Shown here one piece after another: positions 31,660-56,011 of a stretch of DNA of 64,000 nt. The notes under the pieces are model-generated. The model was not told the origin of the DNA, made no database searches, and saw only the letters and a program-made list of their open reading frames with translations. How positions within the stretch are numbered: the stretch's first letter is position 1; each line of letters starts with the position of its first letter. Source of the DNA: an uncultured Gemmatimonadaceae bacterium (GTDB lineage Bacteria; Gemmatimonadota; Gemmatimonadetes; Gemmatimonadales; Gemmatimonadaceae). The stretch spans positions 210,200 through 274,199 of the forward strand of contig CAWFQK010000003.1 in NCBI GenBank assembly GCA_963817955.1. The letters are read 5' to 3'. A program made the position numbers and the translations under genes.

Positions 31660-31715
31660 GCGTTACACTAGTCGGTCCAGGTGTAACGGCTGGATAATGG
31701 TGTAGCCATTACTAT
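31660..31715 (+). promoter_or_regulatory. GTAAC-box promoter module (copy 1) upstream of pilin 1
   Basis: GTTAC 31662, GTAAC 31683 (+21), ATAAT 31694 (+11), then TACTAT at 31710; aligns with the copies at 42326 and 42475. Confidence 0.6.
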
Positions 31716-31788
31716 GCGCCCTGTTCCCGTGCCTTCGTCGGGCCTAACGCGGCGATGACGTCGCGAACGTAACATTGAATAGGTGACC

Positions 31789-32469
31789 ATGATGCTGAAG
31801 ACTATGACTCCCGCGCGCCGCCGCGCTGGTTTCACACTGATCGAGACCATCGTCACGGTGGGTCTCATCGCGGTGCTCGCCGCCTTCGTGATTCCATCGG
31901 TCATTCAAAAGGCCGGCGCGGGCGATCCGGTCAAGGTTCAGAACGACCTGAACACGGTTCGGACGGCAATCGAGACCTTCGCCACCGACACCAAGGCAGG
32001 ATTTCCACATCAAATATCGTTGTTGACCTCCAAGCCAGTCGCGGCGACCGATCACCTCATCGACAGCACCCTGATTACCAGCGGACAGGTGTCGCTCTGG
32101 AACGGTCCATACCTTGGGGCGACGATCTCTTCGACAGTCAAGGACAGCATCGCCACTGGCTATACGGCGTACATCCGCAATTTCATCGACCGCTACGACA
32201 TCGTGAATAATGCCGCGGCTCACGATACGCTGGGTGTAGTCAATGTGGCATTTTCGGCGACGAGCACGCTCTTCGCAGCAATACGCATCGACGGACTGAC
32301 CGTCGCGCAGGCAAAGGCGATGAACACGTTGTTCGACGGCGCAAACGACGCGAACCTGGGGGACGGATCGAATACGACCGGCCGGTTCCGCTTCCTCGCT
32401 CCGGCGCTGACGGGTCCTCAAGCCAACCAAGTCGTCGCCTACTATATGGCTGCACCGATCACCCAATAG
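31789..32469 (+). CDS. Type IV pilin/pseudopilin (GspG-like), pilin 1
   Basis: RRRAG|FTLIETIVTVGLIAVLAAFVIP class III signal (Phe+1, Glu+5), WNGPYL. Confidence 0.9.
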   Translation: MMLKTMTPARRRAGFTLIETIVTVGLIAVLAAFVIPSVIQKAGAGDPVKVQNDLNTVRTAIETFATDTKAGFPHQISLLTSKPVAATDHLIDSTLITSGQVSLWNGPYLGATISSTVKDSIATGYTAYIRNFIDRYDIVNNAAAHDTLGVVNVAFSATSTLFAAIRIDGLTVAQAKAMNTLFDGANDANLGDGSNTTGRFRFLAPALTGPQANQVVAYYMAAPITQ

Positions 32470-32478
32470 GCGCACACC

Positions 32479-33195
32479 ATGGTCAGCGAGCTGCAGGACA
32501 GCATGGTCGACATGCGCGCGTTGCGCCAGCGGCGTGGCTTTACCCTCATCGAGACGATCGTCACGGTAGGACTGATTTCCGTGATGGCGGCGTTCGTCGT
32601 GCCCTCTGTACTCAAGAAGGCCGATGCCGCAGATCCGGTGAAGGTGGCGACCGATCTGAACTCCATCTCAACGGCTATCCAGTCGTTCGCGTCAGACGTC
32701 AAGGGTGCTTTGCCTGGGGATCTCGAAGATCTCACCGATCCGTTGATGACCAACGGGACGTGCAACACGATCAATCCGTGCGATTCCACGGTTACGCACG
32801 TCAACATCTTCACGGTTGCGCAGGCGGCGCTCTGGCGTGGACCGTACTTGCAGGCGTCGATTGGTCCGAGCCCAGATGCGGCGATTCGTAGCGGATATGT
32901 GGCAGATATCCACAATACCCTGGTGCGCTACGATGCCACGAGCGGGGTGCCAGAGTGGTGTTCCGGCATCGGAACACAGCTCGTCCCTTGCGCTGGATTC
33001 ATCGTGACGAATCCACTGTACGTAGCGGTGCGGGTGGACAGTCTCAATCTTGCCCAGGCGCTGATCGTCAACAACATCATCGACGGACCAAACGAGGCGC
33101 AGCCAGGCTTGCAGGGACGCTTCCGGTTCCCCACGCCAGCGTCGCCAACGGCTTTGGCGACACCGGCTTACTTCCTGGCTACGCCGGTGCCGTAA
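32479..33195 (+). CDS. Type IV pilin/pseudopilin (GspG-like), pilin 2
   Basis: QRRG|FTLIETIVTVGLISVMAAFVVP, WRGPYL, two Cys pairs; paralog of pilin 1. Confidence 0.9.
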   Translation: MVSELQDSMVDMRALRQRRGFTLIETIVTVGLISVMAAFVVPSVLKKADAADPVKVATDLNSISTAIQSFASDVKGALPGDLEDLTDPLMTNGTCNTINPCDSTVTHVNIFTVAQAALWRGPYLQASIGPSPDAAIRSGYVADIHNTLVRYDATSGVPEWCSGIGTQLVPCAGFIVTNPLYVAVRVDSLNLAQALIVNNIIDGPNEAQPGLQGRFRFPTPASPTALATPAYFLATPVP

Positions 33196-33338: not shown

Positions 33339-33526
33339 GGTGGGAATGCTTTTGGCACCGATGTAGGTGCAGCACGAAGTTCGATCGCGCGTGGCAACGC
33401 TGGCCGCGCGTTGGGCAAATCAAATTTGTGACATGGATGGCGGCGCGAATCTTGTGTTCGTTGCCGATGTGTTCGCGCTGTTTCGGCACTCTGCCGTGAA
33501 GTATTTCTTTGGACGAGACCTCGACG

Positions 33527-36500
33527 ATGATCTCTCTCCGGTCGTTCGCTTCCTCTACGGTTCTTGCGTGCGCTGCGCTGCTGGTCGCAGGCTGTACGGA
33601 CGGCCCAATGGGCCCCCTGAGCGCAACGCGTCAGGCGGGCAAGGCGAATTTCGACGGGAAGGTCGGTAGCACTGGCAATTCCGCCAAGAACGGCTCGATC
33701 GACGTGCGCGTGCTGCTCGACAAGAGCGGCGGCGCGGTGCTCGAGATCCGTACCGGCACCTTTGACGACGCCACGAATACCGGAACGCCTAACGGCTACT
33801 TCCAGAATGTTCAGTACAAGGTGTATGACGGGTCAAAGAAGCAGGTGCAGGTAGAGAACGTCAAATTCAAGACCGACGGAACCACCAAATACGTCACGTC
33901 GATCAACCTCTGCTCCACGAATGAAGATGAGGAGTACGACGACCACAACCACGACCACGACCACGACCACGACCGCGACCACAACCATGAGAATCGCACG
34001 CCGTCGTGCGCAAAGACGTTCGGCGCCGGCTGGACCGTGTCTGTCCAGGCGAATCTCAAGGGCGTCGGCGGCGACGACAAGAAGACCGACGTTGTTCGCG
34101 TCGATGGAACGCCGGTGTATCTCCCCGACGTCGACCTGACCAAACAGGGCATTTACGTTGTTGGCGCCGACGGATCGCAGTCGCCCGCATCGCAGGTGAC
34201 ACCTGGCGTGGCAACGACGTACTCCGTCACGATTCCCAACAACAAGCCTGTGCTTGGCTTGCCGAACAGCGTTGGCGTCGTCACGACGTGCGCCGTGTCC
34301 GTCGATGGCATCACGCAATTCGCACTGCCAACGTCAGGTTTCGGCAAAAGCTCCAATCCGAACCTGTTCAGCTATGTCGGCAGCGGCACGCAGACGATCG
34401 CCGGTGGAGCGAGCGCCCCCTGCCAGTTCACGCTGACATTGTCAGCCGGCAAGCACACCGTCAAGGTGACCGCAGTCGTTCTGTATCCCGGCGATTACGA
34501 TAGTTTGAACAACAGCACTCAGGCGATCACCGTCACGGCGGTCTCCGGGTCGCCGGACATCGCGGCCGGCGTGCTGCAGGCCGACATCGGGAACGGACAA
34601 GTACAGACTCTCGACAAGACGATTTACGCGGGTCAGTCGCTCAACCTCGACCAATGGGTGTCGCTCGTCAGCGGCGCTCCGCCGGGAACCGTGACGTGCA
34701 CCCTGACGATCACCAATACCGCCACGAACGCCGTTACGACGGCGAGCGGCTCCGTGGCACTGACGTCGGGCGATGCCAAGGCTTGCGCGATTCCGTACAG
34801 CTTTGCAGCGGCAGGCACGTACTCGGTGACCAGCGTCGTCATGCCCCCGTCCGGCGTGACCGATCCAGTCCTTGCCAACAATACCGCGACGAATACGGTC
34901 ACGGTGAGCGTGGCTGTCGCATCGGCGAATGTCGTCGTCAGCAGCCTCGCGTTCACGGACGCCGCGGTGAACGCGACGACGCAAGTATTCTCGCCGTCAT
35001 CAAATCCAGCGGCAGACACCATTCATTCTGGCGACGTCGTCACGTACGCGGCGACGGTCAGCGCGAGCAACTTCCTGAACGCCACGTCGGTCCCGTCAGT
35101 CACCTGCACGGCAACGGACAACGGAACCGACATCACCAAGTCCGTTACGTGGATCAAGCAGGCGGTGGCGAGCTTGGGGACGAGCGCCCAATCGTGCAGC
35201 TTCCAGTACACGATCACCGAGAGCGACGTGAATTCGTCGCACCCGCATACGATCGGCGTGTCGGTCTCGACCGGGAATTTCACCAATACCGCGACGACCA
35301 ACGCGACCGGCACGGGAACGGTCACGATTCCGGCGGTTTCCCCGCAGGCTGCGGTCGTCGTAAGCCAGCTGTCGTTCACGGATGCAGCCGAGCACATCAC
35401 GTCGCGCGCCTTCTCGCCCACCGCCGATCCAACGGCGGATACCGTACACTCGGGTGACGTGGCCAGGTACGAGGCAACGATCAGCGCCACGGGCTTCCGA
35501 AATGCTACGGCCGTGCCGGTGACGTGTTCTGCAACGGTGGATGGAGTGAGCGTCACGTCCGGTTGGGTTACGCAGACGATCAGTCTTGGTACGACGCCGC
35601 AAGTGTGCAGCTTTACGCGCGCGATCACTGAGACTGACAATCTGATGCACCCGCACAACATCCAGTTCTTCGTCACGACCGGCACGTTCGTGAACACGGC
35701 GAAACCGGCAGATACGAGCCGGCTCGGTGTGATCAATGACTACCGACGCGTGGATGTTTCGGTGGGCGCGCTTCAGTTGCTCAATGCGAGCGGCAACCCG
35801 ATCGATCTTTCAAAGAACGGTGTGCAGCAAGGCGCGACGGTAACGTTGCAGGTTCCGATCACGAATCTCGATCCGACGACGGCAACGTCGGTGAACTGCG
35901 GTATCCTCTCGAACGACACCGGCGCCCCTATTACCACATTCGCGTTGCCGTCTGCGGACATCGTGGCGAGCTCGCTCAGGCCGGTGACGCTCACCACCAC
36001 CGCCATCACTCTGGCGGCGAATGGCACCGGCGTATGCCAGTACAGCGTTACGGCACCGACCGACCAAGGCCTGATTTCAATCCCGCTGGTTGCGTTGGTG
36101 ACGTCCACGACGGATAGTCCGCCCGATCCCGATCCCCGGAACAACGCATCGTTCGGTAGCCTGACCGTCGTCAGCAGCGGCGCGTTCACGAATGTGGCCG
36201 GCGGCGTCTTCAGCCTGGCGCAGGAGTGGACAAATCCGTTCACCCCGGCGTCTGATTGGCCGGTGGTTGGCACGCTCGACAACCAGAACTTTAAGGCGTC
36301 TCAGCTCTCACTGCTGGTCGTGCCGACGAAAAATATTCTGGGAACGTTCGCGCTGAGCGGAACAGTGATTAGTGGCCCAGCCACTGCACCCGTCACGTTC
36401 GGCACCGGGACGCTTCCGGCGGCCGAGCTTCGTGCTTCGACCGGACCGGGCGATACGCCGTGCATCACCATCGGACCGTTGGCTCCGCTCGGCAACGCCG

Positions 36501-36820
36501 GCGAGCCAGAAATCAAGTATTTCGCACAGGTCTGCGCGACGCAGGCGCCTCAGGACGGTTTCCAGGCGATCTTTGTGAACTACTCCCAGTCGATGCAAGG
36601 GCCGCTGGCGCCGACTCCGACCACCCTGTTCTTCACGAATTCGGTTGTGATGAAGATCCGGCTTGATTTCACGCTTACAGGCAGCACCATTGCGGATAAG
36701 GTCACCGCTACTATTACCGTGCCGGTGATTACGCTAGCCGATAATTGCGGCCCCAACCAGGGTGGGACCGCAAATGCATGTTCGACCACCTTCGGAGCCC
36801 CCACGGTTTCGACCCCGTAA
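33527..36820 (+). CDS. Large Thr/Ser-rich surface lipoprotein with Cys-paired Ig-like (CARDB/DUF11-like) repeats; putative adhesin
   Basis: Lipobox LVAGC; repeated V.C....C beta modules, several ending D...NN; internal 141-aa duplication; His-Asp loop. Confidence 0.7.
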   Translation: MISLRSFASSTVLACAALLVAGCTDGPMGPLSATRQAGKANFDGKVGSTGNSAKNGSIDVRVLLDKSGGAVLEIRTGTFDDATNTGTPNGYFQNVQYKVYDGSKKQVQVENVKFKTDGTTKYVTSINLCSTNEDEEYDDHNHDHDHDHDRDHNHENRTPSCAKTFGAGWTVSVQANLKGVGGDDKKTDVVRVDGTPVYLPDVDLTKQGIYVVGADGSQSPASQVTPGVATTYSVTIPNNKPVLGLPNSVGVVTTCAVSVDGITQFALPTSGFGKSSNPNLFSYVGSGTQTIAGGASAPCQFTLTLSAGKHTVKVTAVVLYPGDYDSLNNSTQAITVTAVSGSPDIAAGVLQADIGNGQVQTLDKTIYAGQSLNLDQWVSLVSGAPPGTVTCTLTITNTATNAVTTASGSVALTSGDAKACAIPYSFAAAGTYSVTSVVMPPSGVTDPVLANNTATNTVTVSVAVASANVVVSSLAFTDAAVNATTQVFSPSSNPAADTIHSGDVVTYAATVSASNFLNATSVPSVTCTATDNGTDITKSVTWIKQAVASLGTSAQSCSFQYTITESDVNSSHPHTIGVSVSTGNFTNTATTNATGTGTVTIPAVSPQAAVVVSQLSFTDAAEHITSRAFSPTADPTADTVHSGDVARYEATISATGFRNATAVPVTCSATVDGVSVTSGWVTQTISLGTTPQVCSFTRAITETDNLMHPHNIQFFVTTGTFVNTAKPADTSRLGVINDYRRVDVSVGALQLLNASGNPIDLSKNGVQQGATVTLQVPITNLDPTTATSVNCGILSNDTGAPITTFALPSADIVASSLRPVTLTTTAITLAANGTGVCQYSVTAPTDQGLISIPLVALVTSTTDSPPDPDPRNNASFGSLTVVSSGAFTNVAGGVFSLAQEWTNPFTPASDWPVVGTLDNQNFKASQLSLLVVPTKNILGTFALSGTVISGPATAPVTFGTGTLPAAELRASTGPGDTPCITIGPLAPLGNAGEPEIKYFAQVCATQAPQDGFQAIFVNYSQSMQGPLAPTPTTLFFTNSVVMKIRLDFTLTGSTIADKVTATITVPVITLADNCGPNQGGTANACSTTFGAPTVSTP
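33941..33988 (+). repeat. In-frame hexamer repeat (GACCAC-like)x8 encoding DHNHDHDHDHDRDHNH
   Basis: Read directly. Confidence 0.9.
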
Positions 36821-36905
36821 GCTGCGCCGCGCACTTCGTAACGCGCCATCGACTCGGATCGTCTGAGTGATGGCGCGTTTCGCGTTCCGTACCCGCGTGT
36901 ACATC

Positions 36906-38096
36906 ATGAAGCGTTCTCATCGACTTGGTCGCGGCTTCACCCTGATGGAGGTTGCTGTCGCCGCCGCCATCTTGGCGATGCTTGCCGCGGTAACGTCTCC
37001 GTACCTCGTTGAGTTCATCGACAAGCAGCAGGCCCAAACGACCGCAGACAAGCTCGCGGCGCTCGCCGCAGGCGTGGCTGCCTTCGAGAACAATGTGCAC
37101 TCCGGCGCCGCCGCCACGGCTCTGACGTATCCTGGACGCATTGGCGAACTGGCAAACGCCATCACTGCCTCGAACGCGTCATACCGTAATAGTTGTGGGG
37201 TTAACTTCAACGCGACTGCCGTCACGGGCTGGAATAGCTTTGGCCCATTCGTAACGTTCTACGTCGACAGCACCAACGGCTACAGCACGCCGCTTGGCAT
37301 GGTGAGTGATGCAATGGTCCGCAATCCGACCACCGCGAACGGCAGCAGCACGGGCGCCGGCACGTTGGCCCTTCGCATGATTGCGATCGACTCTTCCGAT
37401 GCCGTCGATCTCGATCTCATCGTTGACGGTGGCGATGGCGGTGCCTCAGGTGTCCTCCGCTACACCATCGGCACGACGACGGCACATATGGCCGACGTGT
37501 CGTATTTCATTCCGGTCGCGGACCAAGTGCTGAAACGCCGCCGCGCACAACAGGGCTTTACGCTCGCCGAAGTGCTCGTGGCCTTCGTGTTGATTGGCGT
37601 GCTCGCGGCCGTCATCGTTCCCACCGTTCGCGGCCGGCTGCAGTCGGGCTACGAGAGCGCCATCATCTCGGAATTCACCAACCTGTCGTCCGCCATCACC
37701 GCGTATCGTCAGGACGTCGGCAAATACCCACCCAGTCTCGATTATCTGTCGGCTCTCCGGACGCCGACGCCGTTAGATCGGTGCGGCATCGCGCTCAGCG
37801 CGAATGCGATTGCCTCGTGGCGCGGACCCTATACCACGCGCACCATTCCGATCGTCGGTGGCGGCGGCGGCTACATGTTCGCGTCAAAGGACACCATCGC
37901 CGATCTCATGTCAGTGAGCACCGCGCCAGTCGGCTTTTCGATCACGCTCAAGGGCCCCGACACGCTCACCGCTCACAACGTCGATCTTCAAGTGGATGGC
38001 GTCGCCAACGCGACCGCCGGCAATCTGCAGTGGACGGTCAACGGGGCGGACGTCTGGATCAACTACATCATTGCCACAAAATCCGGAGCCTGTTGA
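36906..38096 (+). CDS. Two type IV pilins in one ORF (pilin 3 plus pilin 4); possibly two genes, 36906-37533 and 37527-38096, joined by a 1-nt insertion
   Basis: Class III signals GRG|FTLMEV and an internal QQG|FTLAEV; removing one C at 37523-4 gives ...ADKC* overlapping a GTG start. Confidence 0.85.
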   Translation: MKRSHRLGRGFTLMEVAVAAAILAMLAAVTSPYLVEFIDKQQAQTTADKLAALAAGVAAFENNVHSGAAATALTYPGRIGELANAITASNASYRNSCGVNFNATAVTGWNSFGPFVTFYVDSTNGYSTPLGMVSDAMVRNPTTANGSSTGAGTLALRMIAIDSSDAVDLDLIVDGGDGGASGVLRYTIGTTTAHMADVSYFIPVADQVLKRRRAQQGFTLAEVLVAFVLIGVLAAVIVPTVRGRLQSGYESAIISEFTNLSSAITAYRQDVGKYPPSLDYLSALRTPTPLDRCGIALSANAIASWRGPYTTRTIPIVGGGGGYMFASKDTIADLMSVSTAPVGFSITLKGPDTLTAHNVDLQVDGVANATAGNLQWTVNGADVWINYIIATKSGAC

Positions 38097-38099: not shown

Positions 38100-41000
38100 T
38101 CAGCGCCGGACGGCGCGCCCCGGAAGCTCTACCAGCAAGTCCGAAAGCGCGACAGTGCTTCCCGTAGCTCGCCCGCCAAGCCACAATTGCGCGGGCGTTG
38201 CCATTTCATCGCCAAGAAACTTGAGTGAAGAACGCCAGCGCACCTGACCATCCACTGAGAACGTCACGACTTGGTCGCCTCCGATCGTGATCTCGACCGT
38301 GTGGCTGTCGGCTGGACGGAACAGAGATACGGGCTCCGACGAAGTCTGCTGGCCCACCGAGTACATGAGAACGCCAGCCGCGCCGTCCCAGCTCACTGCG
38401 GCCATGGGCGCAAATCGCGGCGCCGCCCGATCGATCGCCGTCACATCGGCCAGCGGCACGAGTGCCATTGTTGCCGTGGCCGCCGACGGACGCCCGCTGA
38501 ATGGCGCAAACAGACGGGCGCGCACGTGCAGTCCGGAACGCAACTCGAGGCCTGGACGCAAGAGAACGCCGCTTTCCCATTCCATGTCGCCGTTCGGATA
38601 GACCGCCCGCTTCGCCGAGCCGGCGATGACGCCCACGTACGGGAGTGGTGCGCCGAGCGGCAGCCACTGCGCACTCACGGTGCTGCCTATGAATTCATCG
38701 GTGATGTGAAGCCGCTCCGTCGATGTCACCGCGAGCGTGAGTGTGTCGGCGCGCCAACCAGGAAGCAATGCGACGACACGAACGTTGCCTACGGCGCGCC
38801 CGACGACTTTCAATCCGGCGGTGTTTCCCGTCCCCGGCGCCGAGTCGCTCAATGCAATTATGCCTGGGTCGAGCACCTTCCAGTCAGCAATCGTTCCGCT
38901 GACGAGCGCTCCCGCAACGGAAACGGTGAATGCGGTCAGCCGCACCGTATCTCCCACGCCGAGCGCTGCGCTGCCGAGGACCCGGACGCGGTCGATGTAC
39001 ACGCGCGCGGCCCCATCCCACCGTGCGATGCCGAACTGCCGGCCCGGCGGCGTGACACGGCGGGGTGATCCACCGAGCGTCGGCCGAACGTAGATCCCCA
39101 GATCGCCATCTCGCACCGACTGGAATGCGAGCATGCGGCCATCGGGCGAGAACACCGCACCATCGTCGCCATTCCGATCGGAGACGGGCCACAGTCGCGC
39201 ATTGTCGAAATCGTATACGTAAAGACGCGGTCCGCCATTCCGTGTGCTCGTGAACACGAGCATCGAACCATCCGGCGACCAATTGATGTTGTAGTCATCA
39301 GCTGGATTAGCACTCAGGTTTCGTTGCTCCGAACCATCCGGTCTGCTGACGAACACGTCGCGCTGCCTCCCGGAGGTGGAGCGGGCCACCCACGCCACCC
39401 ATAAACCTGTCGGCGACCAGCGTGCTTCCGTCACGGTACGCGATGCAGACGTGTCGATTGGAACGAGCACATTGCGTTGGTCAATCGACGCGCGAAACAG
39501 ATCGGTGTCGAAGCTCCCGTCGTCGAGCGTGCGCGACCGGGACACCAGCAGCGACCTGCTGTCCGGCGACCAGGCGAGTGCCGTATTGTCTCCGGGGCCT
39601 GCCGCTATGATCAGTGTGTCATGCCGATCGGCGGACAAGACATACACCTCCCGTCCGCGAGTGGTAACCCGCTCGAGCGCGACGCGTTGGCGATCGGGAG
39701 CGACGATTGGTGCGAGCCAGGGTGCGCCGAGCGAATCAATCCATTGCAGCCCGGCGGCGTTCGTCGGAATCGGGACGAGCACACTGGCTCCCCGAAGCGC
39801 CCCAACGTCGGCGCGCAACTGATTCTGTCCGCGCGCGTCGCGCTCCGACACGATCAAGGTATCAGCCACGCTGCCCGCGGCCATTCGCGTGGTGACGGCG
39901 CGGCGAAAAGCCATACCGGCGAGGAACACGACGATCGAAATCGCGATTGCGCGAGCCCATTGCGCCCGAGTGGCCCTTTTCCGGACGGCGAAGGGAATGT
40001 GCGCGGTGGCGGACGTCGACGGCTCCGCTGTCTGCGCTGGCAAGTCGAGTGGCTCGACCACAACGTCAGGTTCGCTCGCCTCGACGGTCTCGACCGCCGG
40101 CGCCGCAGCCGCCTCCTCAGGCGACGGCAGGGCGAGTCGGCCGCCTCCAAACGCGACCAGCAGAGCGTCAATGTCCTGGCGTGCCGCGGCGTTCGGCGCA
40201 AAGGTCAGCGCGATGCCGAGTAGGCGCACGACCTCTGGAGAAGCTCCCATTGATGCCGCGGTGAACGCAGCCTTTCGTGCATGCGCGAACGCCTCGCGCG
40301 ATCTGCCGGCAACAGCGTAGAGCGCCGCGAGCTCAGAGTCGGTGCAATCCGGCTCTGCCGCGAGGGCATCCCCTGCCCACCCTGCGAGCAATGCTCGTCC
40401 CGCCAGTCCGCTGCCGTCCACGAGAAAAGACGTCGTCGAGTCGTGCGACACGACGTAACCATCGGATATCGCGCGCAGCAGTCCGACGCGCGTCAGGTCC
40501 TCCACGGCGTCAAAGGTCGCGCTCTCCGGAAGATGCGCCGCGGCAGCGAGCAAACGCAGCGAGGCGGTACGCTCAAAGAGAGACGCAGCAAAAAACACGC
40601 GTCGCTGTGAAGGCGACGCGCCTTGAAGTCGCGCCCACAACATGTCGCGCATCGATGCAGGAAGATCACTGGCTCCCTGACCAGCCGCCGCGCGCCGCGC
40701 CAGCTCGATGGCCGTGACCGGAACGCCCCGCGAAGCGTGGGCAATCCGCTCGACGTCAACCGCCGTGCGCGTTGCCTCTGGAAGCTGCTCGCGCACGAGC
40801 GTCGTCGTCTCGTCATGGGACAGCGGACCAAGCTCGATCCGGGTGTCGGGGCTCTGTTCATCGACCGTCGCCAGCTCGCGCAACCGTTCGATGGTTTGCT
40901 GTGCGCTTCGATCGGGACTGTAGGCGACGACAAATAGAATGGGCGAGTCGTGCAGACGGTGCGACAGATACGTCAACAGGTCGAGCGTCGAGCTGGATGC

Positions 41001-42325: not shown

Positions 42326-42380
42326 CCGTAACACGCGAAAGGACAGGAGTAACGGCCAGCTAACGGTCGGGGGCGATAAT
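42326..42380 (+). promoter_or_regulatory. GTAAC-box promoter module (copy 2)
   Basis: GTAAC 42328, GTAAC 42349 (+21), CTAAC 42360 (+11), 8 bp after the heptamer, then GATAAT at 42375. Confidence 0.65.
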
Positions 42381-43163: not shown

Positions 43164-43242
43164 GCCGATTGCGGCTCTGATGGACTTTTCGATTCCCCGC
43201 AGCAGGCAGTTCGTTCCCTACTCGACCCTTAGGAGAAGACAG

Positions 43243-48754: not shown

Positions 48755-50491
48755 TCAGCGTCCCCCGCCTATCGACACCGGCTGCCCGCTGATGATCGTG
48801 GGTGTGAGAAACACTACGAGCTCCGAACGGGTTTCCGTGGTGTTGATCCGCTGGAACACCTTGCCGATCAACGGGAGGTCCTTGAGTACTGGAATGCCGC
48901 TCACTGTGTTTTCCTTGCGCGTCTGCACCAGGCCACCAATGATCATCGTTTCTCCGGCGCGAAGCCGTGCGATGGTGTCGCCTTCGCGGCGGGCAATCAC
49001 CGGCGCGCTCGCCGAGGTTCCATCCGAGGTGGTGATGGTCGCGATGTGATCGATGTTCGTCACCGCCGGGCGAATGTTCATCGTCAGCACGTTGTCCGCC
49101 GAGATCTGCGGCAGCACGTCGAGCACCACGCCCACCGAGATCTGCTGCGGAATGATCTGGCTTTCGATGCTCACCACGCCGCCGTTTGCGCCGAAGAGCG
49201 GCGTGCGCGTCACCGAGAAGAAGACTTCGTCGGTGGTGACATTGAAGATGGCGCGCTGGTTGTTGAGTGCCGTCGTCTGCTCGTTGGAGAGCACGTTCAC
49301 TGTGCCCTGCGTCGAGAGCGCCGTGAGCACCGCGTTCACCTGTGTCGCACCGTTCTGCAGCGTGAAATTGACGGTACCGGCGTTGCCGGTGGTCTGCACC
49401 GATGGGTCGCTGCGCAGCGTGACGCCAGACGTGCCGGCGGCGGTGCTCGTCACCACGCTCCAGTCGACACCGTACTGGAATGTGTTCGACAGACTCACCT
49501 CGACGATCTTTGCTTCGATGAGTACCTGACGCAGCACTGACGATTGGAACTGGTTGATGAACGATTCTACGGCGGCGAGCTTGTCCGGCATGGCCGTGAC
49601 ATTGATCAGCCCTGACATGGGACTGATCACGAGGCTCGAGCCATCGCCAAAGGGGGTGCTCGATGCCCCGGCGCCAACGCCGCCGCCCGCCGCCGACTGC
49701 ACCGTCGCAGGCGGTGCGTTCGGAGTGCCTGCGGCGCGTTCGGCCTGCTGGCCGGCCTGCATGATCCCAGTGAGTGAGACCTTGATTTCCTGCCAGATGT
49801 CGGCCACGGATTGCGCCGACAGGACGTCACCGCCGCCGGCACCACCGGCGATCGCGCCGGCCGCGCTGGTGCTCAGGCCCGACGCCGTTCCCACCACCGG
49901 CCCCGCCCCACCGCTCGACAACCGGCGCTGTACGACGGTGCTCATGGTGCCGACGCGTGACAGCGCGACGTAGTCCAGTGTGAACGTCTTCGTTTGCATG
50001 CGAACGGGAACCACTCGAAGCACGCTGCCCTGCAGTTGGTAGGCGTACCCGTTCCGTGACACAAGTTCCTTGAGGGCATCATCGAGCGTCACGTTTCGCA
50101 GTTTCAGGTCACCGTTTGCCGTGCCACGAACTTCAGGATCGACGTTCACGGTAAGACCGAGCTGTGAGCCTATCTGCGATACAGCCGTGGCGATCGGCGT
50201 GCCGCTTGGAACGTCGATCACGCGAATGCGCGCCACAGGAGCCCCCGAAACCGCCGGCTGCTGCGTTCCAGGGAGCTGTGGCAGGGTGGTCGGCGTGTTC
50301 GGTTCGAGCGTGCCTGCGGCTGGCGCCGGACTCAAAGGAACACCGGCCTGCGCCGGCTGTGCGGCTGGTTCCGTGTGCACCGAGGTGCGCACTTGTGGAA
50401 CACCACCGCCGCTGGCGCACGCAGTGAGCAGAACGACGACTCCCACAGCCGCCAGGTGCGCGCGTGTGTTCCTACCGTTGCAGAGCGGCAT
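48755..50491 (-). CDS. mshL: Secretin, MshL-type (lipoprotein)
   Basis: Lipobox LTAC, STN domain, TKTFTLDY (MshL N-domain), QVLIEAKIVEV, GIPVLKDLPLIGKVF, ELVVFLTP. Confidence 0.88.
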   Translation of the reverse strand: MPLCNGRNTRAHLAAVGVVVLLTACASGGGVPQVRTSVHTEPAAQPAQAGVPLSPAPAAGTLEPNTPTTLPQLPGTQQPAVSGAPVARIRVIDVPSGTPIATAVSQIGSQLGLTVNVDPEVRGTANGDLKLRNVTLDDALKELVSRNGYAYQLQGSVLRVVPVRMQTKTFTLDYVALSRVGTMSTVVQRRLSSGGAGPVVGTASGLSTSAAGAIAGGAGGGDVLSAQSVADIWQEIKVSLTGIMQAGQQAERAAGTPNAPPATVQSAAGGGVGAGASSTPFGDGSSLVISPMSGLINVTAMPDKLAAVESFINQFQSSVLRQVLIEAKIVEVSLSNTFQYGVDWSVVTSTAAGTSGVTLRSDPSVQTTGNAGTVNFTLQNGATQVNAVLTALSTQGTVNVLSNEQTTALNNQRAIFNVTTDEVFFSVTRTPLFGANGGVVSIESQIIPQQISVGVVLDVLPQISADNVLTMNIRPAVTNIDHIATITTSDGTSASAPVIARREGDTIARLRAGETMIIGGLVQTRKENTVSGIPVLKDLPLIGKVFQRINTTETRSELVVFLTPTIISGQPVSIGGGR

Positions 50492-51000
50492 CAGCCGTCT
50501 CCCTCCTTGACCGCGATTATGTGCGAGGCGCCCTGCGCGTCAGTCACCACGACGCGATCACGCTCGACCGACGTGAGCTTCCCTCCGCCCGGCAGCCGAT
50601 CACCTACGTAAATGAGGATATCGTTGATCACGGCCGCGCGGTGCGTACCTGCCACGAGCGTCGCCGATACGCGCCAGTGTTCGCCTTCGACCACCGCTGG
50701 TCGCGGCGCCGCATCACCAGAGTGCCGCGATTGAGCTACTGCCACGGCTTGCGCCGCGAATGGATCATGTCGCAGCACGATACTGTCGCTGGAGGCAAGC
50801 GCAAAACTGCTGCTGTCGGCCATCGGCGCCATCGGCGCCGTATAGGGCATGAATTGACTCAACTGCGGATGCGGAGGAGGTGCGCCGGCGAGGCCAGACT
50901 GTCGCGAACCCGTGCCATTGAGCGACCACCATCCAATGAAACCGATCGCCGCGACTACGCCGCCGACGAGTCCGATCCAGCGATGGATGTTCTTATCCAT
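50491..51000 (-). CDS. PilP/MshK-like protein
   Basis: TM anchor, RHDPF, VSATL....AAVIND...GD.L. Confidence 0.65.
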   Translation of the reverse strand: MDKNIHRWIGLVGGVVAAIGFIGWWSLNGTGSRQSGLAGAPPPHPQLSQFMPYTAPMAPMADSSSFALASSDSIVLRHDPFAAQAVAVAQSRHSGDAAPRPAVVEGEHWRVSATLVAGTHRAAVINDILIYVGDRLPGGGKLTSVERDRVVVTDAQGASHIIAVKEGDG

Positions 51001-51583
51001 GCTGGTTCACCCCGACGGTTTCAAAGACAGCAAAGGTGAGACTGTACTGCGTTCCGCTCTTCGTGCGAATCGCGACCAGGCGCTGCAGCGCGATTGACGG
51101 CGGTAACTGATTGATGAGGGACAACACGGCTCCGAAACTGCCGGAGCACTCGAGAGCCAACGAATAGTCTGCGAGCGCAACAGCGCGGTTCGTCATGTCC
51201 GGCTTCGCTGGAGGTGCGGCGCTGTCCGGACCTGCGAACCTCACGCGCACACCGGACAATCCCCGTCGCTCGGCGCCCGATGCGAGTTGCTCGGCGAGCG
51301 AAACACGCAGGTCATGTGCGACGCCGACCTGCAGATCGTCCGGCAAGCGCGCGTCGGCGTCTTCCTGCGGGGTCAGTGGCTGGAACGCCGAGCGGAAGGT
51401 GGAAATCTCTGTCTCCACCACGCGAAGCGTAGAGATGTCCGTGCGGATCGGCAGGAGCCGGCGGCGCGCCGCCAAACCCAATCCAACAAAGACGAACAAT
51501 GCGAGCAACGCCACGCCGAGCACTTCGCTCCGCAGGCGATGCTGGCGCATTGCCGCTCGCACATCAGCCATGGTCACGGCCAT
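50993..51583 (-). CDS. PilO/MshJ-like inner-membrane alignment protein
   Basis: TM helix, coiled coil, GSFGAVLSLINQL ferredoxin-like motif; position in operon. Confidence 0.65.
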   Translation of the reverse strand: MAVTMADVRAAMRQHRLRSEVLGVALLALFVFVGLGLAARRRLLPIRTDISTLRVVETEISTFRSAFQPLTPQEDADARLPDDLQVGVAHDLRVSLAEQLASGAERRGLSGVRVRFAGPDSAAPPAKPDMTNRAVALADYSLALECSGSFGAVLSLINQLPPSIALQRLVAIRTKSGTQYSLTFAVFETVGVNQHG

Positions 51584-53076
51584 CAGCGTGCCGCCTCCGG
51601 TTTCGGCGCCATGGAGAACGACAGATGGAACTGGATCACCACTGGTGCGGCGGACGCGCTGTGCGTCGAGTCCTCGACCGCGGCAGCGGCGGGATAGTCG
51701 AAATGGTCGAGCGTTGGCACGGCGATCCCAGGCCGCGAACGCACCGACTGATAGAAGGTGTCGAAGCCGCGAACCGCCTGCGCTGCAGAACCACCGGCGG
51801 ATTGACCGCCGATCGCGGCGGACCAGCCCGTTGGAGTTCGCGAGACGCGCACACTGTCGAACCGGACGCCGGCCGGCAGGCCTTCAGCAAGAGCTTGCAG
51901 CGTAGTGGTCAGCATGCGCCGCTCGTCGTGAGCACCGCGAAGGAACGCCATCTGCCGCGCGAAATCCGCACGACGCTCTGCGACCAAACGCATTGGTTCT
52001 ACCGCCGGCACTCCTGCGGCTATGGCCTTCTGCACTGTCGCCAACTCGCTCCGCGCGCCAGCGAGCGTGGTGAACTGCAGCACCGCCCACATGCCGGCGA
52101 TCGCTGCGGCAGTAGCCGCGGCGGCGGCAATCGCGTTTGGGCCGCGAAGCATGGCGCCGACGCGTTTGACCACCGTTGGGGCATGCGGAAAAAGATCCAA
52201 CGGCGTCTGGCGCTGCGCTTCCAGCACTGCGCCCATGGCGACCGCCACCTCAGGCGACGTGGCTCCCGCGAACAGCGGCTTCACGCGCACGCCGAGTCGC
52301 TGTTCGAGCGCGGCTCCGAGCTCGTCATACTCGTCGTCGGGGGCGGAGAGCAGCAGGCGCGTGGCGGTTGCGCCGCGAAACTGCTGCCGGAAGTACACCA
52401 CGCCGCGATCGACTTGATCGAGGATCATCGATACGGGCGGACGTTCCCCTTCGAGCGCGATGGGCGGATCGATTGCCAGCTCGAGCCGGCCGCCCAGGAA
52501 GAATGCGAGGTGCGGCCCGCCTTCGAGGCAGACGAGCACCGCTGTTGGTTCCAGTGCGCCGCCGGTGGCTTCGTACAGGCTGTGAATGGCCTTTGGTACG
52601 ACGGTCGCAATCTCAATCTCGATGTGCTGCGGAGTCAGTTTGTCGCGCAGCGCATCAACTACGTCGCGAGGAGCACCGCCGATGAACACTTGCCGGGGCG
52701 CCGCATCGTTGGTGTCGCGTTGCTTGGGTTCATCGGGCTCGCTCCGCGTGAACGCAATGACTGGATCGGGCACGCCGAACACGCGCTGCACCTCGCGGCG
52801 AATCACCGGCTGCAGCACCTCGTCCGCTGCACCGGGGAGTGTCATCACGTGGTGGAATACGCCGAACTGCTCCACGGCAATGGCGATCTTGGCTCGCGTG
52901 ACATTGCGCGATGCCAGGAGCGCCAGGAGCCGGTCGAGCGCCTCGTCGATCGACGTCGATCGCCCGCGGTCCATCCAGTGTTCGAGAATGCGAGTGCCCG
53001 TGCGCTCGGCATGGTACTCCACCAGGCAGACGCCGTCGAACGCGATCAGCGCGCCAAACCTCCGAATTGCGCTCAT
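51583..53076 (-). CDS. PilM-PilN fusion (MshI/GspL-like)
   Basis: Actin-like cytoplasmic domain, LDLFP (PilN N-terminal motif-like), TM helix, coiled coil, LPAGVRF PilN-like periplasmic domain. Confidence 0.7.
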   Translation of the reverse strand: MSAIRRFGALIAFDGVCLVEYHAERTGTRILEHWMDRGRSTSIDEALDRLLALLASRNVTRAKIAIAVEQFGVFHHVMTLPGAADEVLQPVIRREVQRVFGVPDPVIAFTRSEPDEPKQRDTNDAAPRQVFIGGAPRDVVDALRDKLTPQHIEIEIATVVPKAIHSLYEATGGALEPTAVLVCLEGGPHLAFFLGGRLELAIDPPIALEGERPPVSMILDQVDRGVVYFRQQFRGATATRLLLSAPDDEYDELGAALEQRLGVRVKPLFAGATSPEVAVAMGAVLEAQRQTPLDLFPHAPTVVKRVGAMLRGPNAIAAAAATAAAIAGMWAVLQFTTLAGARSELATVQKAIAAGVPAVEPMRLVAERRADFARQMAFLRGAHDERRMLTTTLQALAEGLPAGVRFDSVRVSRTPTGWSAAIGGQSAGGSAAQAVRGFDTFYQSVRSRPGIAVPTLDHFDYPAAAAVEDSTHSASAAPVVIQFHLSFSMAPKPEAAR

Positions 53077-54287
53077 CGGTGGCCGATCGAGTTGTAGATG
53101 TTCAGGATCGGCAGAATGATCGCCAGCGCCACGGTCAAGATGACACCGCCAATGAGCGCGATCAGCGCTGGCTGCAGCAACGTGATCATCCGCCGCACCG
53201 CTGCGGGAATCTCGCGGGCGTAATAGTCCTTGGTGCGGGCGAGCGCGTTGTCCAGGTTACCCGTGGCCTCGCCCAGGGCGACAGCGCGCAGCACGACGTT
53301 TGGAAACAACGGGGATTGGCCGAGGGCGGCGGCGAGTGAAATACCTTGCGTCACCTGGTCGCGCGCGTTGCCAACAGCCAGCGCGACCGACTTGTTCGTG
53401 ATGATGCGTTCGACGATCGTCATCGAGAGCACGAGGTCGACACCGGTGCGGTAGAAGAGACTGAGATACGTGACGACGCGCGCCATGTTGACGTCGCGAA
53501 TCAATACGCCGAAAATCGGAAGCCGCAGAACCAGGCGATCGACGAACAGCCGCCCACGTTCCGTCCGCCGAGCGAAGTAGATGATCAATACAAGCGCGTT
53601 GAAGGTGAGCAACGTCGCCAGCCAATCCTTGCGGACGATGTTCGACGTGAACAGGATCACTTGGGTCGGTAGCGGCAGCGCTTGTTTGGAGTTCTGCACG
53701 AGCGGCAGAATGCGCGGAAACACGAACGCCAGCAATCCGATGACGAGCAGGATGACGGCGCCGACGACGACCAACGGATACATCGTCGCCTGTGTGAGCT
53801 GGGAATTGATCGTCTCCTGCCAGTCCATGTACTCGACGAGTTGCCGCAACGCGTATCCCAGCTCACCACTCGCCTCGCCGGCGCGGATGGTGCCGACGCA
53901 TAACTCCGGAAAGGCGATCGGATGTTCGCCCATGGCGGCAGAGAGACTCTGTCCCTCGTCGGATACGGCGTACCGCACCTCGCCGATGATGATGCGCAGA
54001 CGCTTGGAGCTGAGCCGGTTGGCGACGTCGTCGAGCGATTCGAGAATTGGAATGCCGACGTCGAACGAACCAGCGACGTACTCCAAGAAGGCGAGCAGCT
54101 CTTTTCGCTCGATCTTTCCATCTGTGATCTTGCGGACCACGGCCGGCTTGTCGCGCATCTCGGCACGAATGAGAAAGGCCCCGCGTTGGCGGAGCTGATC
54201 CTCGATCACGGTCTCATTCGGGGCAGTGAGATACCCCTCCTGCACCGCTCCCGTGTCTGTGAGTGCGCTATACCAGAAATCCGGCAA
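53073..54287 (-). CDS. pilC: Type II secretion/T4P platform protein (PilC/GspF/MshG)
   Basis: GIPILESL, AGEASGEL, MYP, LPLPTQ, LPIFG, GEATGNLD; TTG start. Confidence 0.92.
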   Translation of the reverse strand: MPDFWYSALTDTGAVQEGYLTAPNETVIEDQLRQRGAFLIRAEMRDKPAVVRKITDGKIERKELLAFLEYVAGSFDVGIPILESLDDVANRLSSKRLRIIIGEVRYAVSDEGQSLSAAMGEHPIAFPELCVGTIRAGEASGELGYALRQLVEYMDWQETINSQLTQATMYPLVVVGAVILLVIGLLAFVFPRILPLVQNSKQALPLPTQVILFTSNIVRKDWLATLLTFNALVLIIYFARRTERGRLFVDRLVLRLPIFGVLIRDVNMARVVTYLSLFYRTGVDLVLSMTIVERIITNKSVALAVGNARDQVTQGISLAAALGQSPLFPNVVLRAVALGEATGNLDNALARTKDYYAREIPAAVRRMITLLQPALIALIGGVILTVALAIILPILNIYNSIGHR

Positions 54288-54304
54288 GTATGCTCTCGGG
54301 TCGC

Positions 54305-56011
54305 CTAGGCGGTCACACGCAATACCTCATCGAGCGTCGTAATGCCCGCCCGAACCTTGTCCACGCCGTCGTCCATGAGGGTTGGACGAGCGGCGATCCG
54401 CCGAATCTCGTCCGATGACTTCCTCTCATATATGGCAGAGACGATTGCCTCGTCGATCGGCAAAAATTCGAAGATGCCGATGCGGCCACGGAAGCCGGTG
54501 TTACGGCAGAGGTTACATCCCGCTCCGCGATACACCGTCGAGCCCTCGAGCCGAAAGCGCTTTCGAACCGCATCCGGGATGTCCGCCGGCGTCTTACAGT
54601 CGCTGCAAAGGCTGCGAACCAGTCGCTGTGAGGCGATCAACGAAATGGCTGATGCCACGATGAATGGTTCGGCTCCCATGTCGAGGAGGCGCGGGATGGC
54701 TCCCGCGGCAGTCGTCGTGTGCAGCGTCGTCAGGACCAAGTGGCCGGTGAGCGCCGCGCTCAGCGCGATCTGCACCGTTTCTTGATCGCGCATTTCACCC
54801 ACCAAAATGACGTCGGGGTCGTGGCGGAGTATCGACCGCAAGCCTGACGCGAAGGTCAATCCGGCGCGCACGTTGATCTGTGACTGCCGGATCCGTTCGA
54901 CCTCGTACTCCACCGGATCCTCGAGCGTGATGAGGCAGCGATCGCCGGTGTTCATTTCCAGCAACGCGGAATAGAGCGTCGTGGTCTTTCCGGAGCCCGT
55001 CGGGCCGGTGACGGGGAGCAGGCCAAACGGCTTGTCCAGGGCGTCGCGAAGCAGCTTGATGTCCGCGGAATTGATCCCCAAGACCTCGAGCTTGAGGTTC
55101 ACGCGGCTGCGGTCGAGGATACGAAGTACTGTGTCCTCGCCGTACACCGTTGGGAACGTCGAGACTCGGAGATCGATGGCTCGCCCGTCAACCCGCGATC
55201 GAACCCGGCCGTCCTGGGGCAGGCGGCTCTCAGCGATATCGAGGCTGGAGAGAATCTTGATGCGACTGAGGAGTGCCGCCTGGAGGGCCTTGGGATACGC
55301 TGGACCGTTCTGAAGCAGACCGTCTACGCGATAGCGTATCTGAACGATCTCTTCCAATGGCTCAATGTGAATGTCCGTCGCGCCGAGCAGTACGCCACGA
55401 CGAATGATGTCGTCGGCCAGCTCCGCCGCGGTCATCCCGTCGTCGGTGGAAAGCGGCGCGTTGGCCGGCCGGGGCGGCGCCACGGCGGCCGAGCGGCCAG
55501 CGTTTGCCGACCAGGTCGCTTTGGCTCGGGTTGCGGCCTCAGCGCCAGTTGCGACCGATCCGAGGGATGCCCGCATGTCGGCGCCGCCATAAACCGTTTC
55601 CACGAGCGCGGCGATCTCGCCAGGATCGGCTGCGGCGACGCGAATGTGCTTGCCCGTCGACCGTTCGAGCGAGCGGATGGCGCCGACGTCGAACGGGTTG
55701 CCCATGGCAACGAGTAGCGCGTGCGCTTCCATGCGGAGCGGCACGAAATTGTGCGATCGGGCCACCGGCGCCGCGACGAGACCGACGACCATGGGATCGA
55801 CGATGAGCTCGCGTGGCTCGAGGAACGGAATGTCGGCGTCGGATGCGAGGGTCCGTAACAGATCGCGCTCGGTGATGAAGCCGAGACCGACAAGTGCCTC
55901 GCCGATTCGCTCCCCCGTGGTCAGCCGACGCTTCAAGGCCTCATCGAGTTGTGACTGAGTGATGAGGCCTGCATCGACAAGCGACTCGCCGAGCCGAATT
56001 CTGCGCGACAT
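54305..56011 (-). CDS. pilB: Pilus assembly ATPase PilB/GspE/MshE with MshEN domain
   Basis: RLGESLVDAGLI, ATDIHIEP, RLPQDGR, GPTGSGKT, LEDPVEY, DPDVILVGEMRD, tetra-Cys Zn motif. Confidence 0.95.
   Translation of the reverse strand: MSRRIRLGESLVDAGLITQSQLDEALKRRLTTGERIGEALVGLGFITERDLLRTLASDADIPFLEPRELIVDPMVVGLVAAPVARSHNFVPLRMEAHALLVAMGNPFDVGAIRSLERSTGKHIRVAAADPGEIAALVETVYGGADMRASLGSVATGAEAATRAKATWSANAGRSAAVAPPRPANAPLSTDDGMTAAELADDIIRRGVLLGATDIHIEPLEEIVQIRYRVDGLLQNGPAYPKALQAALLSRIKILSSLDIAESRLPQDGRVRSRVDGRAIDLRVSTFPTVYGEDTVLRILDRSRVNLKLEVLGINSADIKLLRDALDKPFGLLPVTGPTGSGKTTTLYSALLEMNTGDRCLITLEDPVEYEVERIRQSQINVRAGLTFASGLRSILRHDPDVILVGEMRDQETVQIALSAALTGHLVLTTLHTTTAAGAIPRLLDMGAEPFIVASAISLIASQRLVRSLCSDCKTPADIPDAVRKRFRLEGSTVYRGAGCNLCRNTGFRGRIGIFEFLPIDEAIVSAIYERKSSDEIRRIAARPTLMDDGVDKVRAGITTLDEVLRVTA

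Follow-up and report, generated by a model that had tools for sequence, protein, structure and literature searches.

The window analysed here, a 64,000-nucleotide stretch from an uncultured Gemmatimonadaceae bacterium (GenBank assembly GCA_963817955.1, contig CAWFQK010000003.1, positions 210,200 to 274,199 of the forward strand; all coordinates below count from its first letter), contains between 31.6 and 56.0 kb a gene cluster that, judged from its sequence, is probably an MSHA-like type IV pilus locus whose pilin genes are under the control of a dedicated regulator encoded within the same locus. The locus lies in a genome of 9 contigs and 4.53 Mb (4,533,955 bp; G000:C3). The predicted architecture of the regulator, the putative operators in front of the pilin genes and the position of both side by side suggest a direct outside-to-gene switch for pilus production. 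An earlier note, made from the letters of the window alone, had named five parts of such a system: six pilin domains, an Ig-repeat lipoprotein, a membrane-spanning SARP-STAND regulator, a promoter motif shared by the pilin operons and a convergent MSHA-like assembly operon ending in a GT-C enzyme. All five were found where it had placed them.

The regulator gene (38100..42263, minus strand) encodes a protein of 1387 residues, which was recognised as a membrane-spanning large SARP from Pfam matches, profile comparison, hydrophobicity and a structural model. The predicted order of domains starts with a winged helix-turn-helix (wHTH) and BTAD module (residues ~18-250) and an AAA_16 P-loop domain (271-445), continues through a helical region to a transmembrane (TM) helix (767-791), the sole hydrophobic segment of the protein, and ends with a TolB-like propeller (~798-1086) that is followed, after an Ig-like linker, by a ConA-like beta-sandwich (~1183-1381). 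Pfam scored BTAD at 42.9 bits (cut-off 22.1), AAA_16 at 84.9 bits and PD40 at 85 bits. As a single sequence the regulator matched the SARP EmbR over residues 20-266 (E 3.6e-6). The profile of 11 orthologues matched AfsR over positions 10-311, reaching the P-loop, with E 2.4e-11 (AfsR matches down to 1.1e-8), and TolB with E 7e-30. In the alignment of the same 11 orthologues, the sequence ARNAFRQxLHRLR of the predicted recognition helix, Walker A (GxGxGK[ST]R), the Walker B aspartate and a HLLAEAARLLPELRD block are invariant or nearly so. The AfsR and EmbR matches, the conserved Walker motifs and the one TM segment support the description of the protein in the earlier note as a membrane-spanning SARP-STAND regulator; among the STAND features, the P-loop domain alone was identified (AAA_16, with weak NACHT and nSTAND-type traces). 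The family searches revealed no cytoplasmic C-terminal TPR sensor in the regulator, its lone TPR match lying within BTAD (residues 168-226). By its predicted domain order the regulator is a large SARP with a membrane helix and an ectodomain in place of the cytoplasmic TPR sensor.

The wHTH at the N-terminus and the propeller at the C-terminus, with one TM helix between them, give a ToxR/CadC-like topology in the presumed membrane orientation. Between the wHTH and the TM helix lie BTAD, AAA_16 and ~320 further residues, so the protein departs from the short-linker, ATPase-free form of ToxR and CadC. The ectodomain was modelled from the last 600 residues with 24 sequences (pLDDT 85.5). The modelled propeller resembles TolB and S9 peptidases (Foldseek E 3.8e-14; VIA Z 22.3), and the modelled C-terminal beta-sandwich resembles GH16 lichenase, the Emp47p carbohydrate-recognition domain and a phage CBM (Z 15.6-15.9). 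Metagenome collections contain at least 410 regulator-like clusters at E <= 1e-20. Nearly all of the best 120 listed are ~1,275-1,420 residues long, with an identical set of Pfam domains; BTAD is missing from three, among them a partial sequence of 1,166 residues. Some sources name these proteins 'DNA-binding SARP family transcriptional activator / Tol biopolymer transport system component' or 'AAA family ATPase'. The linkage described below suggests that such metagenomic 'DNA-binding SARP / TolB' proteins, named by automatic annotation only, are pilus regulators.

The promoter motif GTWACAC-N14-GTAACGG occurs in exactly three copies in the 4,533,955 bp of the genome, at window positions 31662, 42328 and 42477, all on the pilin strand and all at the locus; it is the shared motif that the earlier note had seen upstream of the pilin operons. 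A looser pattern of three pentamers recovered the same three sites only, on both strands of the whole genome (two matches in the reversed-genome control), and with one mismatch allowed the extra genomic matches were no commoner than with the reversed-pattern control. On its own, the heptamer GTAACRS shows no enrichment in the window (23 observed vs 16.9 expected); significance attaches to the phased arrangement alone. Each site consists of three heptamers (R1, R2 and R3) with the core GTNAC/RTAAY, spaced 21 bp from R1 to R2 and 11 bp from R2 to R3. After R3, 8 nt lead to a -10-like hexamer (GATAAT and TATGTT), while TACTAT at pil1 sits one base further on. No TTGACA-like -35 hexamer was found at the three window sites.

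The pil1 promoter operator (31662..31715, plus strand) comprises R1 at 31662-31668, R2 at 31683-31689, R3 at 31694-31700 and TACTAT at 31710-31715; the same arrangement stands upstream of pil1 in 5 genomes of the same genus and upstream of pil1-type genes in other genera. Operator A (42328..42380, plus strand; R1 42328-42334, R2 42349-42355, R3 42360-42366, GATAAT 42375-42380) begins 65 bp from the start codon of the regulator and is conserved in 6 same-genus relatives. Operator B, proximal to pil5 (42477..42529, plus strand), comprises R1 at 42477-42483, R2 at 42498-42504, R3 at 42509-42515 and TATGTT at 42524-42529. The tandem of A and B was seen only in the genus of the window. When the sites of the window and its relatives were aligned, NAnnnT stood exactly 8 nt past the third heptamer in 25 of 28; these 28 had been picked by their pentamers alone, the hexamer being outside the search pattern. 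Passages of two papers on SARPs (PMC10936776, PMC11301090) describe direct repeats spaced by 11 or 22 bp, the 3' member lying 8 bp away from the -10 and overlapping the -35 position. The predicted operators of the locus match this published SARP-box rule in their geometry, and binding of the regulator to them is predicted. In front of pil1, R1 is an almost perfect inversion of R2 (GCGTTAC-N14-GTAACGC; 31662-31689 and the pil1 promoters of relatives), whereas at the pil5 promoters the two read as direct repeats. A predicted transcript from operator A starts ~190 nt upstream of pil5 and passes through operator B (42381-42476). An Rfam scan of positions 30000-58000 at E <= 0.1 gave no match, and therefore no known riboswitch or small RNA in the long pil5 leader.

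Conservation of regulator, pilin and motif was followed through relatives, whose records cover Gemmatimonadaceae, other Gemmatimonadota and one metagenome-assembled genome (MAG) of Longimicrobiales. A full-length regulator orthologue (50-61% identity) was present in 7 of 24 genomes of the genus of the window, and in all seven the gene order was AKR, pil1, pil2, lipoprotein, pil3, pil4, regulator, pil5, pil6, (GT-C), STN, then mshN back to mshE. The same-genus alignments show the motif conserved upstream of pil1 and pil5 and the flanking spacer DNA not. Across a sample of the phylum, 6 of 400 other genomes carried an orthologue (E <= 1e-70), and each of the five with upstream sequence had a divergent pilin gene. 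Named GTDB species genomes yielded 32 Gemmatimonadota loci with regulator orthologues of 35-57% identity. Two of them were without upstream sequence, and a divergent pilin gene lay 150-470 bp upstream of the regulator in 29 of the 30 informative loci. The strict motif was found in 17 of 29 regulator-pilin spacers and a relaxed form, with GTSAC cores and N16-17 spacing allowed, in 26. Elsewhere within 358,868 bp, on both strands, the relaxed pattern matched 11 times: seven of these matches were upstream of pil1-type pilin genes, one was an opposite-strand echo of a pil1-type site, two lay in the same spacers on the other strand and one was upstream of an AKR-like gene. Two regulator-less loci on intact contigs, G002 in the genus of the window and G629 in another genus with other members that have the regulator, both lacked the triple repeat. 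Synteny of the BTAD-AAA-TM-PD40 gene with pilin genes across Gemmatimonadota thus proved to be the rule, and the possibility raised in the earlier note, that orthologues of the regulator might be unlinked to pilin loci and the motif missing from relatives, was not borne out.

More distant BTAD paralogues had a pilin gene within 1.5 kb at only 1 of 33 loci, on which ground the idea that any BTAD protein is pilin-linked was rejected. In another family of the same order (L046, genome G025), a more distant BTAD-AAA homologue of 1110 residues (29% identity over residues 18-695) likewise faces a prepilin gene, which starts ~250 bp upstream in the divergent direction, and the GTAAC triple repeat is missing there; the same wiring may have arisen independently in this case or be older. 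The conserved module consists of mshL, mshM, mshN and STN converging on one to four pil5-type pilin genes, with the regulator divergent from these and pil3/4-type pilin genes beyond it. The msh operon, the pil5-type pilins, the regulator and the pil3/4-type pilins form the core, to which pil1/pil2, the lipoprotein and the GT-C gene are accessory. Within the genus of the window the locus has a patchy distribution (10 of 30 genomes). G002 (L058/L059) retains a reduced form, AKR-pil3-pil4-pil5-pil6-STN-msh, without the regulator, pil1/2, the lipoprotein and the GT-C gene, and G012 (L104) keeps just an MshM-like gene beside a pil1-like gene and AKR. An MshM-like match occurred in 21 of 300 genomes of the family, a tally that takes in G585, flagged as unpublished, and on which no other claim rests.

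A mechanism that would connect these elements can be outlined. The N-terminal SARP domains of the regulator would bind the three heptamers (GTNAC/RTAAY; 21 + 11 bp), the last of which ends 8 bp before the -10 element, and the bound domains would make up for the absent -35 element and bring in RNA polymerase at the promoters of pil5-type and pil1-type genes. An extracytoplasmic cue, a carbohydrate or an envelope- or pilus-derived ligand, would set the activity of the regulator, acting via the single TM helix and altering the clustering or nucleotide state of the NOD. Assembly of the filament would be controlled separately by c-di-GMP binding to MshE. We tentatively propose, as a possibility rather than as the favoured expectation, that the regulator and its orthologues are the first transmembrane members of the SARP/STAND group, in which an outside cue passes through the TM helix to the NOD ATPase switch and leads to direct activation on three phased repeats. 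On that proposal the cue would perhaps be a surface or polysaccharide ligand read by the modelled propeller and lectin-like ectodomain.

Pilin transcription is classically ascribed to PilS-PilR with sigma-54 or to global signals, and SARPs have been studied almost only as switches of antibiotic clusters in actinomycetes. If this tentative proposal is true, Gemmatimonadota would possess a conserved, phosphorelay-free outside-in route dedicated to pilin supply, and SARP-type sigma adaptation would be an ancient general mechanism and not an actinobacterial speciality. In any case, a SARP-box promoter and a cluster-situated large SARP stand together here on a pilus locus outside the actinomycetes, and the predicted architecture anchors the NOD in the membrane and connects it with an extracytoplasmic sensor. 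The locus offers a testable operator-regulator pair for the poorly cultivated Gemmatimonadota, with an operator, the bounds of a DNA-binding domain and 30 natural variants, as well as a natural case for testing if a signal from across a membrane can drive STAND/NOD switching.

Several observations weigh against control of the pilin genes by this regulator. Trans_reg_C of Pfam gave no score on the N-terminus of the regulator. The genome contains three more N-terminal wHTH-BTAD matches, and dozens occur per relative; binding of the repeats by these other proteins is conceivable. Save for its centre, the GTWAC core is self-complementary, and the inverted outer repeats at pil1 differ from a pure direct-repeat SARP geometry; moreover, the R1-R2 spacing is 21 bp (22 in some loci) and not always 22. 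The genome-wide pattern search found no motif at the promoter of the msh operon itself, so that control by the regulator is not predicted for the assembly machinery. Among the 30 informative loci, L077 has its pilin gene on the regulator's own strand, and in three of the 29 spacers (L084, L096 and L099) not even the relaxed pattern was found. Since all loci come from a single phylum, their co-inheritance partly reflects shared descent and related loci do not count as independent; negative cases for the co-occurrence are limited to the two regulator-less loci. Finally, the oligomeric state of AfsR is reported as unchanged on ATP binding in a supplementary figure legend of PMC10936776, and ligand-driven oligomerisation is therefore no given even for the model protein.

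The six pilin domains of the earlier note correspond to six N_methyl prepilin motifs above the Pfam cut-off, one each in pil1, pil2, pil5 and pil6 and two within the open reading frame 36867-38096 (pil3 and pil4). All pilin genes lie on the plus strand. The prepilin-type pil1 (31783..32469, 228 residues, N_methyl 25.8 bits) has orthologues of 58-64% identity, and pil2 (32479..33195, 238 residues, 25.7 bits) of 74-79%. The first N_methyl stretch of the joint frame belongs to pil3 (36867..37529), whose stop codon is lost, and the second (residues 225-250 of the fused frame) to pil4 (37527..38096), which has its own GTG start at 37527 and a GspG-like N-terminus (TIGR01710, 77.5 bits, under the NCBIfam cut-off). 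The pil5-type pilin (42574..43163, 22.0 bits), frameshifted in its 3' part here, is the pilin conserved beside the regulator in all loci, with one to four copies in every relative. The pil6-type gene (43243..43834, 28.7 bits) carries at least three frame changes or in-frame stops. A perfect 22-bp hairpin (43851..43897, -42 kcal/mol, z -11.3) separates pil6 from the GT-C gene that converges on it; it resembles a terminator for both directions without a T run, and a scan between the convergent operons found no T-run terminator.

In pil3, one extra base near 37520 removes the stop codon; the pil3 of relatives ends in ...KC* and their pil3 and pil4 are in different frames, so that pil3 here reads in frame into pil4, whose GTG start shares bases with the former stop. 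Provided that the extra base (37515-37530) is real, translation would yield two fused pilins with a prepilin cleavage motif inside the fusion. Comparison with the orthologue from G009 by tblastn placed a switch of pil5 from frame 1 to frame 3 between 42978 and 43047. pil6 shows a frame switch and two in-frame stops relative to intact G009 orthologues of 200 and 201 residues, and the GT-C gene switches frame near 44516-44523. At least 6-7 frame errors thus fall within ~3.3 kb (3' end of pil3, pil5, pil6 and GT-C), whereas the other ~21 kb of coding sequence compared with G009 is free of them; the errors are therefore clustered (window 42900-44530). They are either local gene decay or consensus error or mis-assembly in a strain-variable region of the MAG, and the filament may be impaired in this genome or the assembly faulty in that stretch. 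That pil5, pil6, GT-C and the stop of pil3 are truly mutated, so that the locus is non-functional here and intact in relatives, is a real possibility, although we hold it less likely than not. A look through sequencing runs listed no RNA run with this stretch, and the single run listed contained 0.05 of the sampled words. The clustering of the errors, the patchy distribution of the locus in the genus (10 of 30 genomes) and the reduced forms in G002 and G012 speak for decay, but the window comes from a 9-contig MAG, consensus errors are likely in strain-variable pilin regions, and the same-genus assembly G002 has clear indel errors in a housekeeping-type S41 gene, which lies in five frame pieces there and suggests error-prone assembly.

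The operators could also serve the opposite purpose. The regulator might bind the repeats and mainly repress, or autoregulate its own divergent gene, and the location of site A, 65 bp from the regulator start codon in the divergent spacer, would suit this role, as would the repression of pilA in planktonic cells, reported in a passage of PMC10599522, by GSU1771, the one SARP-family regulator with an effect on a pilin gene that has been studied. We consider this unlikely, because 25 of 28 sites show the geometry of an activator (8 nt to the -10-like hexamer, pilin strand, no -35) and the pil1 site does not lie beside the regulator gene, which leaves activation of the pilin genes as the preferred reading.

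The minus-strand operon that runs from 56011 to 43909 and converges on pil6 encodes a MshEN+T2SSE protein, a T2SSF protein, three proteins without family (497, 196 and 169 residues), a secretin, an AAA_22 protein, a TPR protein, an STN-like protein and a multi-TM protein; the convergent MSHA-like operon described earlier is present in this extent, and its last gene is GT-C-like by the modelled fold of an intact orthologue. The MshE-type assembly ATPase (54305..56011) scored 407.6 bits with T2SSE (PF00437) and, at its N-terminus, 58.9 bits with MshEN (PF05157, cut-off 23.1). Its c-di-GMP motif model NF053729 reached 62.3 bits, above the 38-bit cut-off, so that the MshEN domain named in the earlier note is present and of the c-di-GMP type. 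Two RLG/RIG...G(L/F)I motifs are visible in this N-terminus, and we take them to be the consensus of the MshEN c-di-GMP motif. The MshG/PilC-type platform protein (53073..54287) matched T2SSF in two stretches (142.1 bits). The MshI position is occupied by a PilM-PilN-like protein of 497 residues (51583..53076) with a central TM segment (residues 315-334) and a weak match to the PilM-like Amuc_1101 (E 2.4e-4); the protein is present in 10 of 30 genus relatives. The syntenic proteins in the MshJ/PilO position (50993..51583, 196 residues, bitopic, TM 16-44) and in the MshK/PilP position (50491..51000, 169 residues, hydrophobic 8-27) had no family match. Size, order and single TM segments of these three proteins fit MshI, MshJ and MshK, while Pfam and NCBIfam gave nothing usable.

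The secretin (48755..50491, Pfam Secretin 123 bits) is MshL-like, its best NCBIfam model being TIGR02519 MshL with 208.7 bits (below the cut-off of 250.2) vs 151.9 for GspD and 115.3 for PilQ. Behind it lie an MshM/ExeA-like AAA ATPase (47332..48753; AAA_22 96.8 bits, TIGR03015 290.9 bits, below the cut-off of 324.5), an MshN-like protein with one TM segment (46172..47335, residues 40-67) that matched TPR families and, under the cut-off, a PilW-type TPR model, and an STN-like protein of 175 residues (45648..46175; STN 17 bits, weak) with sub-cut-off PilQ/HofQ N-terminal matches, which is conserved beside the pilins and syntenic in nearly all loci. No MshM or MshN models were among the Pfam and NCBIfam matches of the locus proteins. 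Nine T2SSE-family ATPase genes above the cut-off in the genome indicate that the locus is one of several type IV filament systems there. The six N_methyl motifs supply the prepilins with class III signal peptides that an MSHA-type pilus requires, and a genome search found the prepilin peptidase as one Peptidase_A24 gene off the locus (C2:354370-354711); no retraction ATPase lies inside the locus.

The same genes might instead build a type II secretion-like machine, in which pseudopilins export a substrate such as the adjacent lipoprotein and no surface pilus is formed. The best named NCBIfam matches of the pilins, platform and ATPase are indeed GspG, GspF and GspE, but all are under their cut-offs, and the secretin scores higher as MshL than as GspD. 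Together with MshEN and the c-di-GMP motif model above their cut-offs, the MshM-like and MshN-like genes, the lack of GspC/L/M-type matches except a T2SSC trace (E 0.024), and the lipoprotein missing from most loci, this makes a secretion machine quite improbable and favours an MSHA-like pilus. Least probable of all, the repeats might be bound by another transcription factor, such as one of the further wHTH-BTAD proteins of the genome (three N-terminal matches; dozens in each relative), with the membrane SARP there for distant genes or for a structural or sensory role in the envelope; however, the motif occurs nowhere else in the genome, is found with the regulator in 26 of 29 spacers and missing from the two loci without it, and its core, like the predicted recognition helix, is invariant across genera.

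Comparison with described systems indicates which elements are familiar. AfsR of Streptomyces coelicolor shares with the locus regulator the N-terminal OmpR-type wHTH and BTAD followed by a P-loop NOD, and its target promoters also have direct repeats at an 11-bp spacing, of which the 3' one stands 8 bp before the -10 element, over the -35 position. However, AfsR has a cytoplasmic TPR sensor, whereas the locus regulator has a TM helix and an ectodomain of ~600 residues (propeller, Ig-like and ConA-like). Moreover, the operators of the locus have a third repeat two helical turns upstream, and the targets here are pilin genes in Gemmatimonadota, whereas the target of AfsR, in Actinomycetota, is a regulator of antibiotic synthesis. 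AfsR is controlled by AfsK phosphorylation according to a passage of PMC10936776. The locus regulator resembles ToxR/TcpP and CadC in its N-terminal wHTH, single TM helix and periplasmic sensor, and differs from them by a BTAD/AAA_16/helical module of ~500 residues between wHTH and membrane, where theirs sits almost directly at the membrane. ToxR/TcpP and CadC combine a cytoplasmic OmpR-type wHTH, one TM helix and a periplasmic sensor, and ToxR/TcpP ultimately switch on the TCP type IV pilus; in contrast to ToxR/TcpP, the pilin promoters of the locus appear to be under direct control.

The MSHA system of Vibrio cholerae has, like the locus, an MshE with MshEN, an MshG platform and several prepilins, and no in-locus retraction ATPase; for its MshL secretin, MshM and MshN the locus has candidate counterparts. 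A role of c-di-GMP in MSHA pili is known from published work. The locus differs from it in its order E-G-I-J-K-L-M-N-STN convergent with the pilins, in the proteins at the I, J and K positions without family match, in several models under their curated cut-offs, and in the embedded SARP regulator with SARP-box promoters. PilS-PilR sets pilA transcription by a phosphorelay to a sigma-54 enhancer-binding protein. Like it, the locus would exert dedicated membrane-sensor control of pilin transcription; unlike it, a single polypeptide acting at promoters with sigma-70-type -10 elements is predicted here.

GSU1771 of Geobacter sulfurreducens belongs to the SARP family, and passages of PMC10599522 and PMC12325454 report that its loss alters pilA expression. 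It is thus also a non-actinobacterial SARP-family regulator affecting a pilin gene, but it is soluble, has a receiver domain, lacks a NOD and a membrane sensor, is encoded off the pilus locus and regulates cytochromes, biofilm and pilA globally. Searches of the open-access literature and bioRxiv yielded neither a transmembrane SARP/NOD protein nor pilin promoters with a SARP box, and no paper on a link between the two. One paper on Gemmatimonadota genomics mentions type IV pili merely as present, and in passages of a 2026 STAND survey transcription regulators appear only as non-immune clades. The statement in the earlier note that no equivalent is known has to be qualified by the partial precedent of GSU1771 and by ToxR/TcpP, membrane-tethered wHTH regulators that control a type IV pilus. 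The protein core, the box, the tethered wHTH and the SARP effect on pilA each have precedents; the combination is conserved and new.

The GT-C-fold membrane glycosyltransferase-like gene (43909..45616, minus strand), split by the frameshift near 44516-44523, was recognised by a fold search with the intact orthologue of G009. Neither the window gene nor this orthologue had a Pfam or NCBIfam match, and its 62 homologues are all labelled 'hypothetical'. The model of the orthologue (pLDDT 91.9, pTM 0.92) found GT-C enzymes in all of its top 30 Foldseek PDB matches, including ALG12 (E 6.3e-6, TM 0.59) and ArnT (E 8.2e-6). Within the acidic DDE motif, placed in an early extracytoplasmic loop as in GT-C enzymes, D134 and E135 are invariant and D133 nearly so among 41 homologues. 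Fold and motif are those of the GT-C enzymes ArnT, PglB/STT3, ALG9/12 and PMT, and the gene adjoins the pilins; unlike these enzymes, it has no sequence family, stands on the strand of the assembly operon, is restricted to part of one genus (absent from G013, G002 and all other genera examined) and is frameshifted here. TfpW is a pilin-modifying GT-C of Pseudomonas. For the filament of the locus, adjacency of the genes hints weakly at a pilin as the acceptor. The 'glycosylated' filament of the earlier note thus keeps its GT-C fold in the last gene, whereas glycosylation itself is weakened by the narrow distribution and the frameshift of that gene.

Beyond mshE, positions 56200-58881 encode a TolB-like PD40 protein of 350 residues and an S41 (PDZ) C-terminal processing peptidase. 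Both keep their place beside mshE in same-genus relatives, including the regulator-less G002, and the idea that they process the regulator was dropped because they also flank that locus.

The large lipoprotein (33509..36820, plus strand, 1103 residues, likely ATG start at 33527) has LVAGC as its lipobox, a stretch rich in His and Asp, and a module of ~130 residues repeated in tandem. This repeat gave a self-alignment score of 269 vs at most 66 for shuffled sequences in windowed Smith-Waterman comparison, while self-BLAST showed no repeats. The lipoprotein had no Pfam or NCBIfam family match, and an Ig-like fold is hinted at by a below-threshold Atlas lead to CARDB (0.81) only, so that of the 'Ig-repeat lipoprotein' described earlier the lipobox and the tandem repeats are upheld and the Ig fold stays a weak lead. 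It occurs in the genus of the window and partly in L096, and is absent from most loci. Its His/Asp-rich run (…DDHNHDHDHDHDRDHNHE…; residues ~136-165, window 33900-34000), with a weak trace of the zinc-uptake protein ZrgA (E 0.13), may be a metal-binding stretch.

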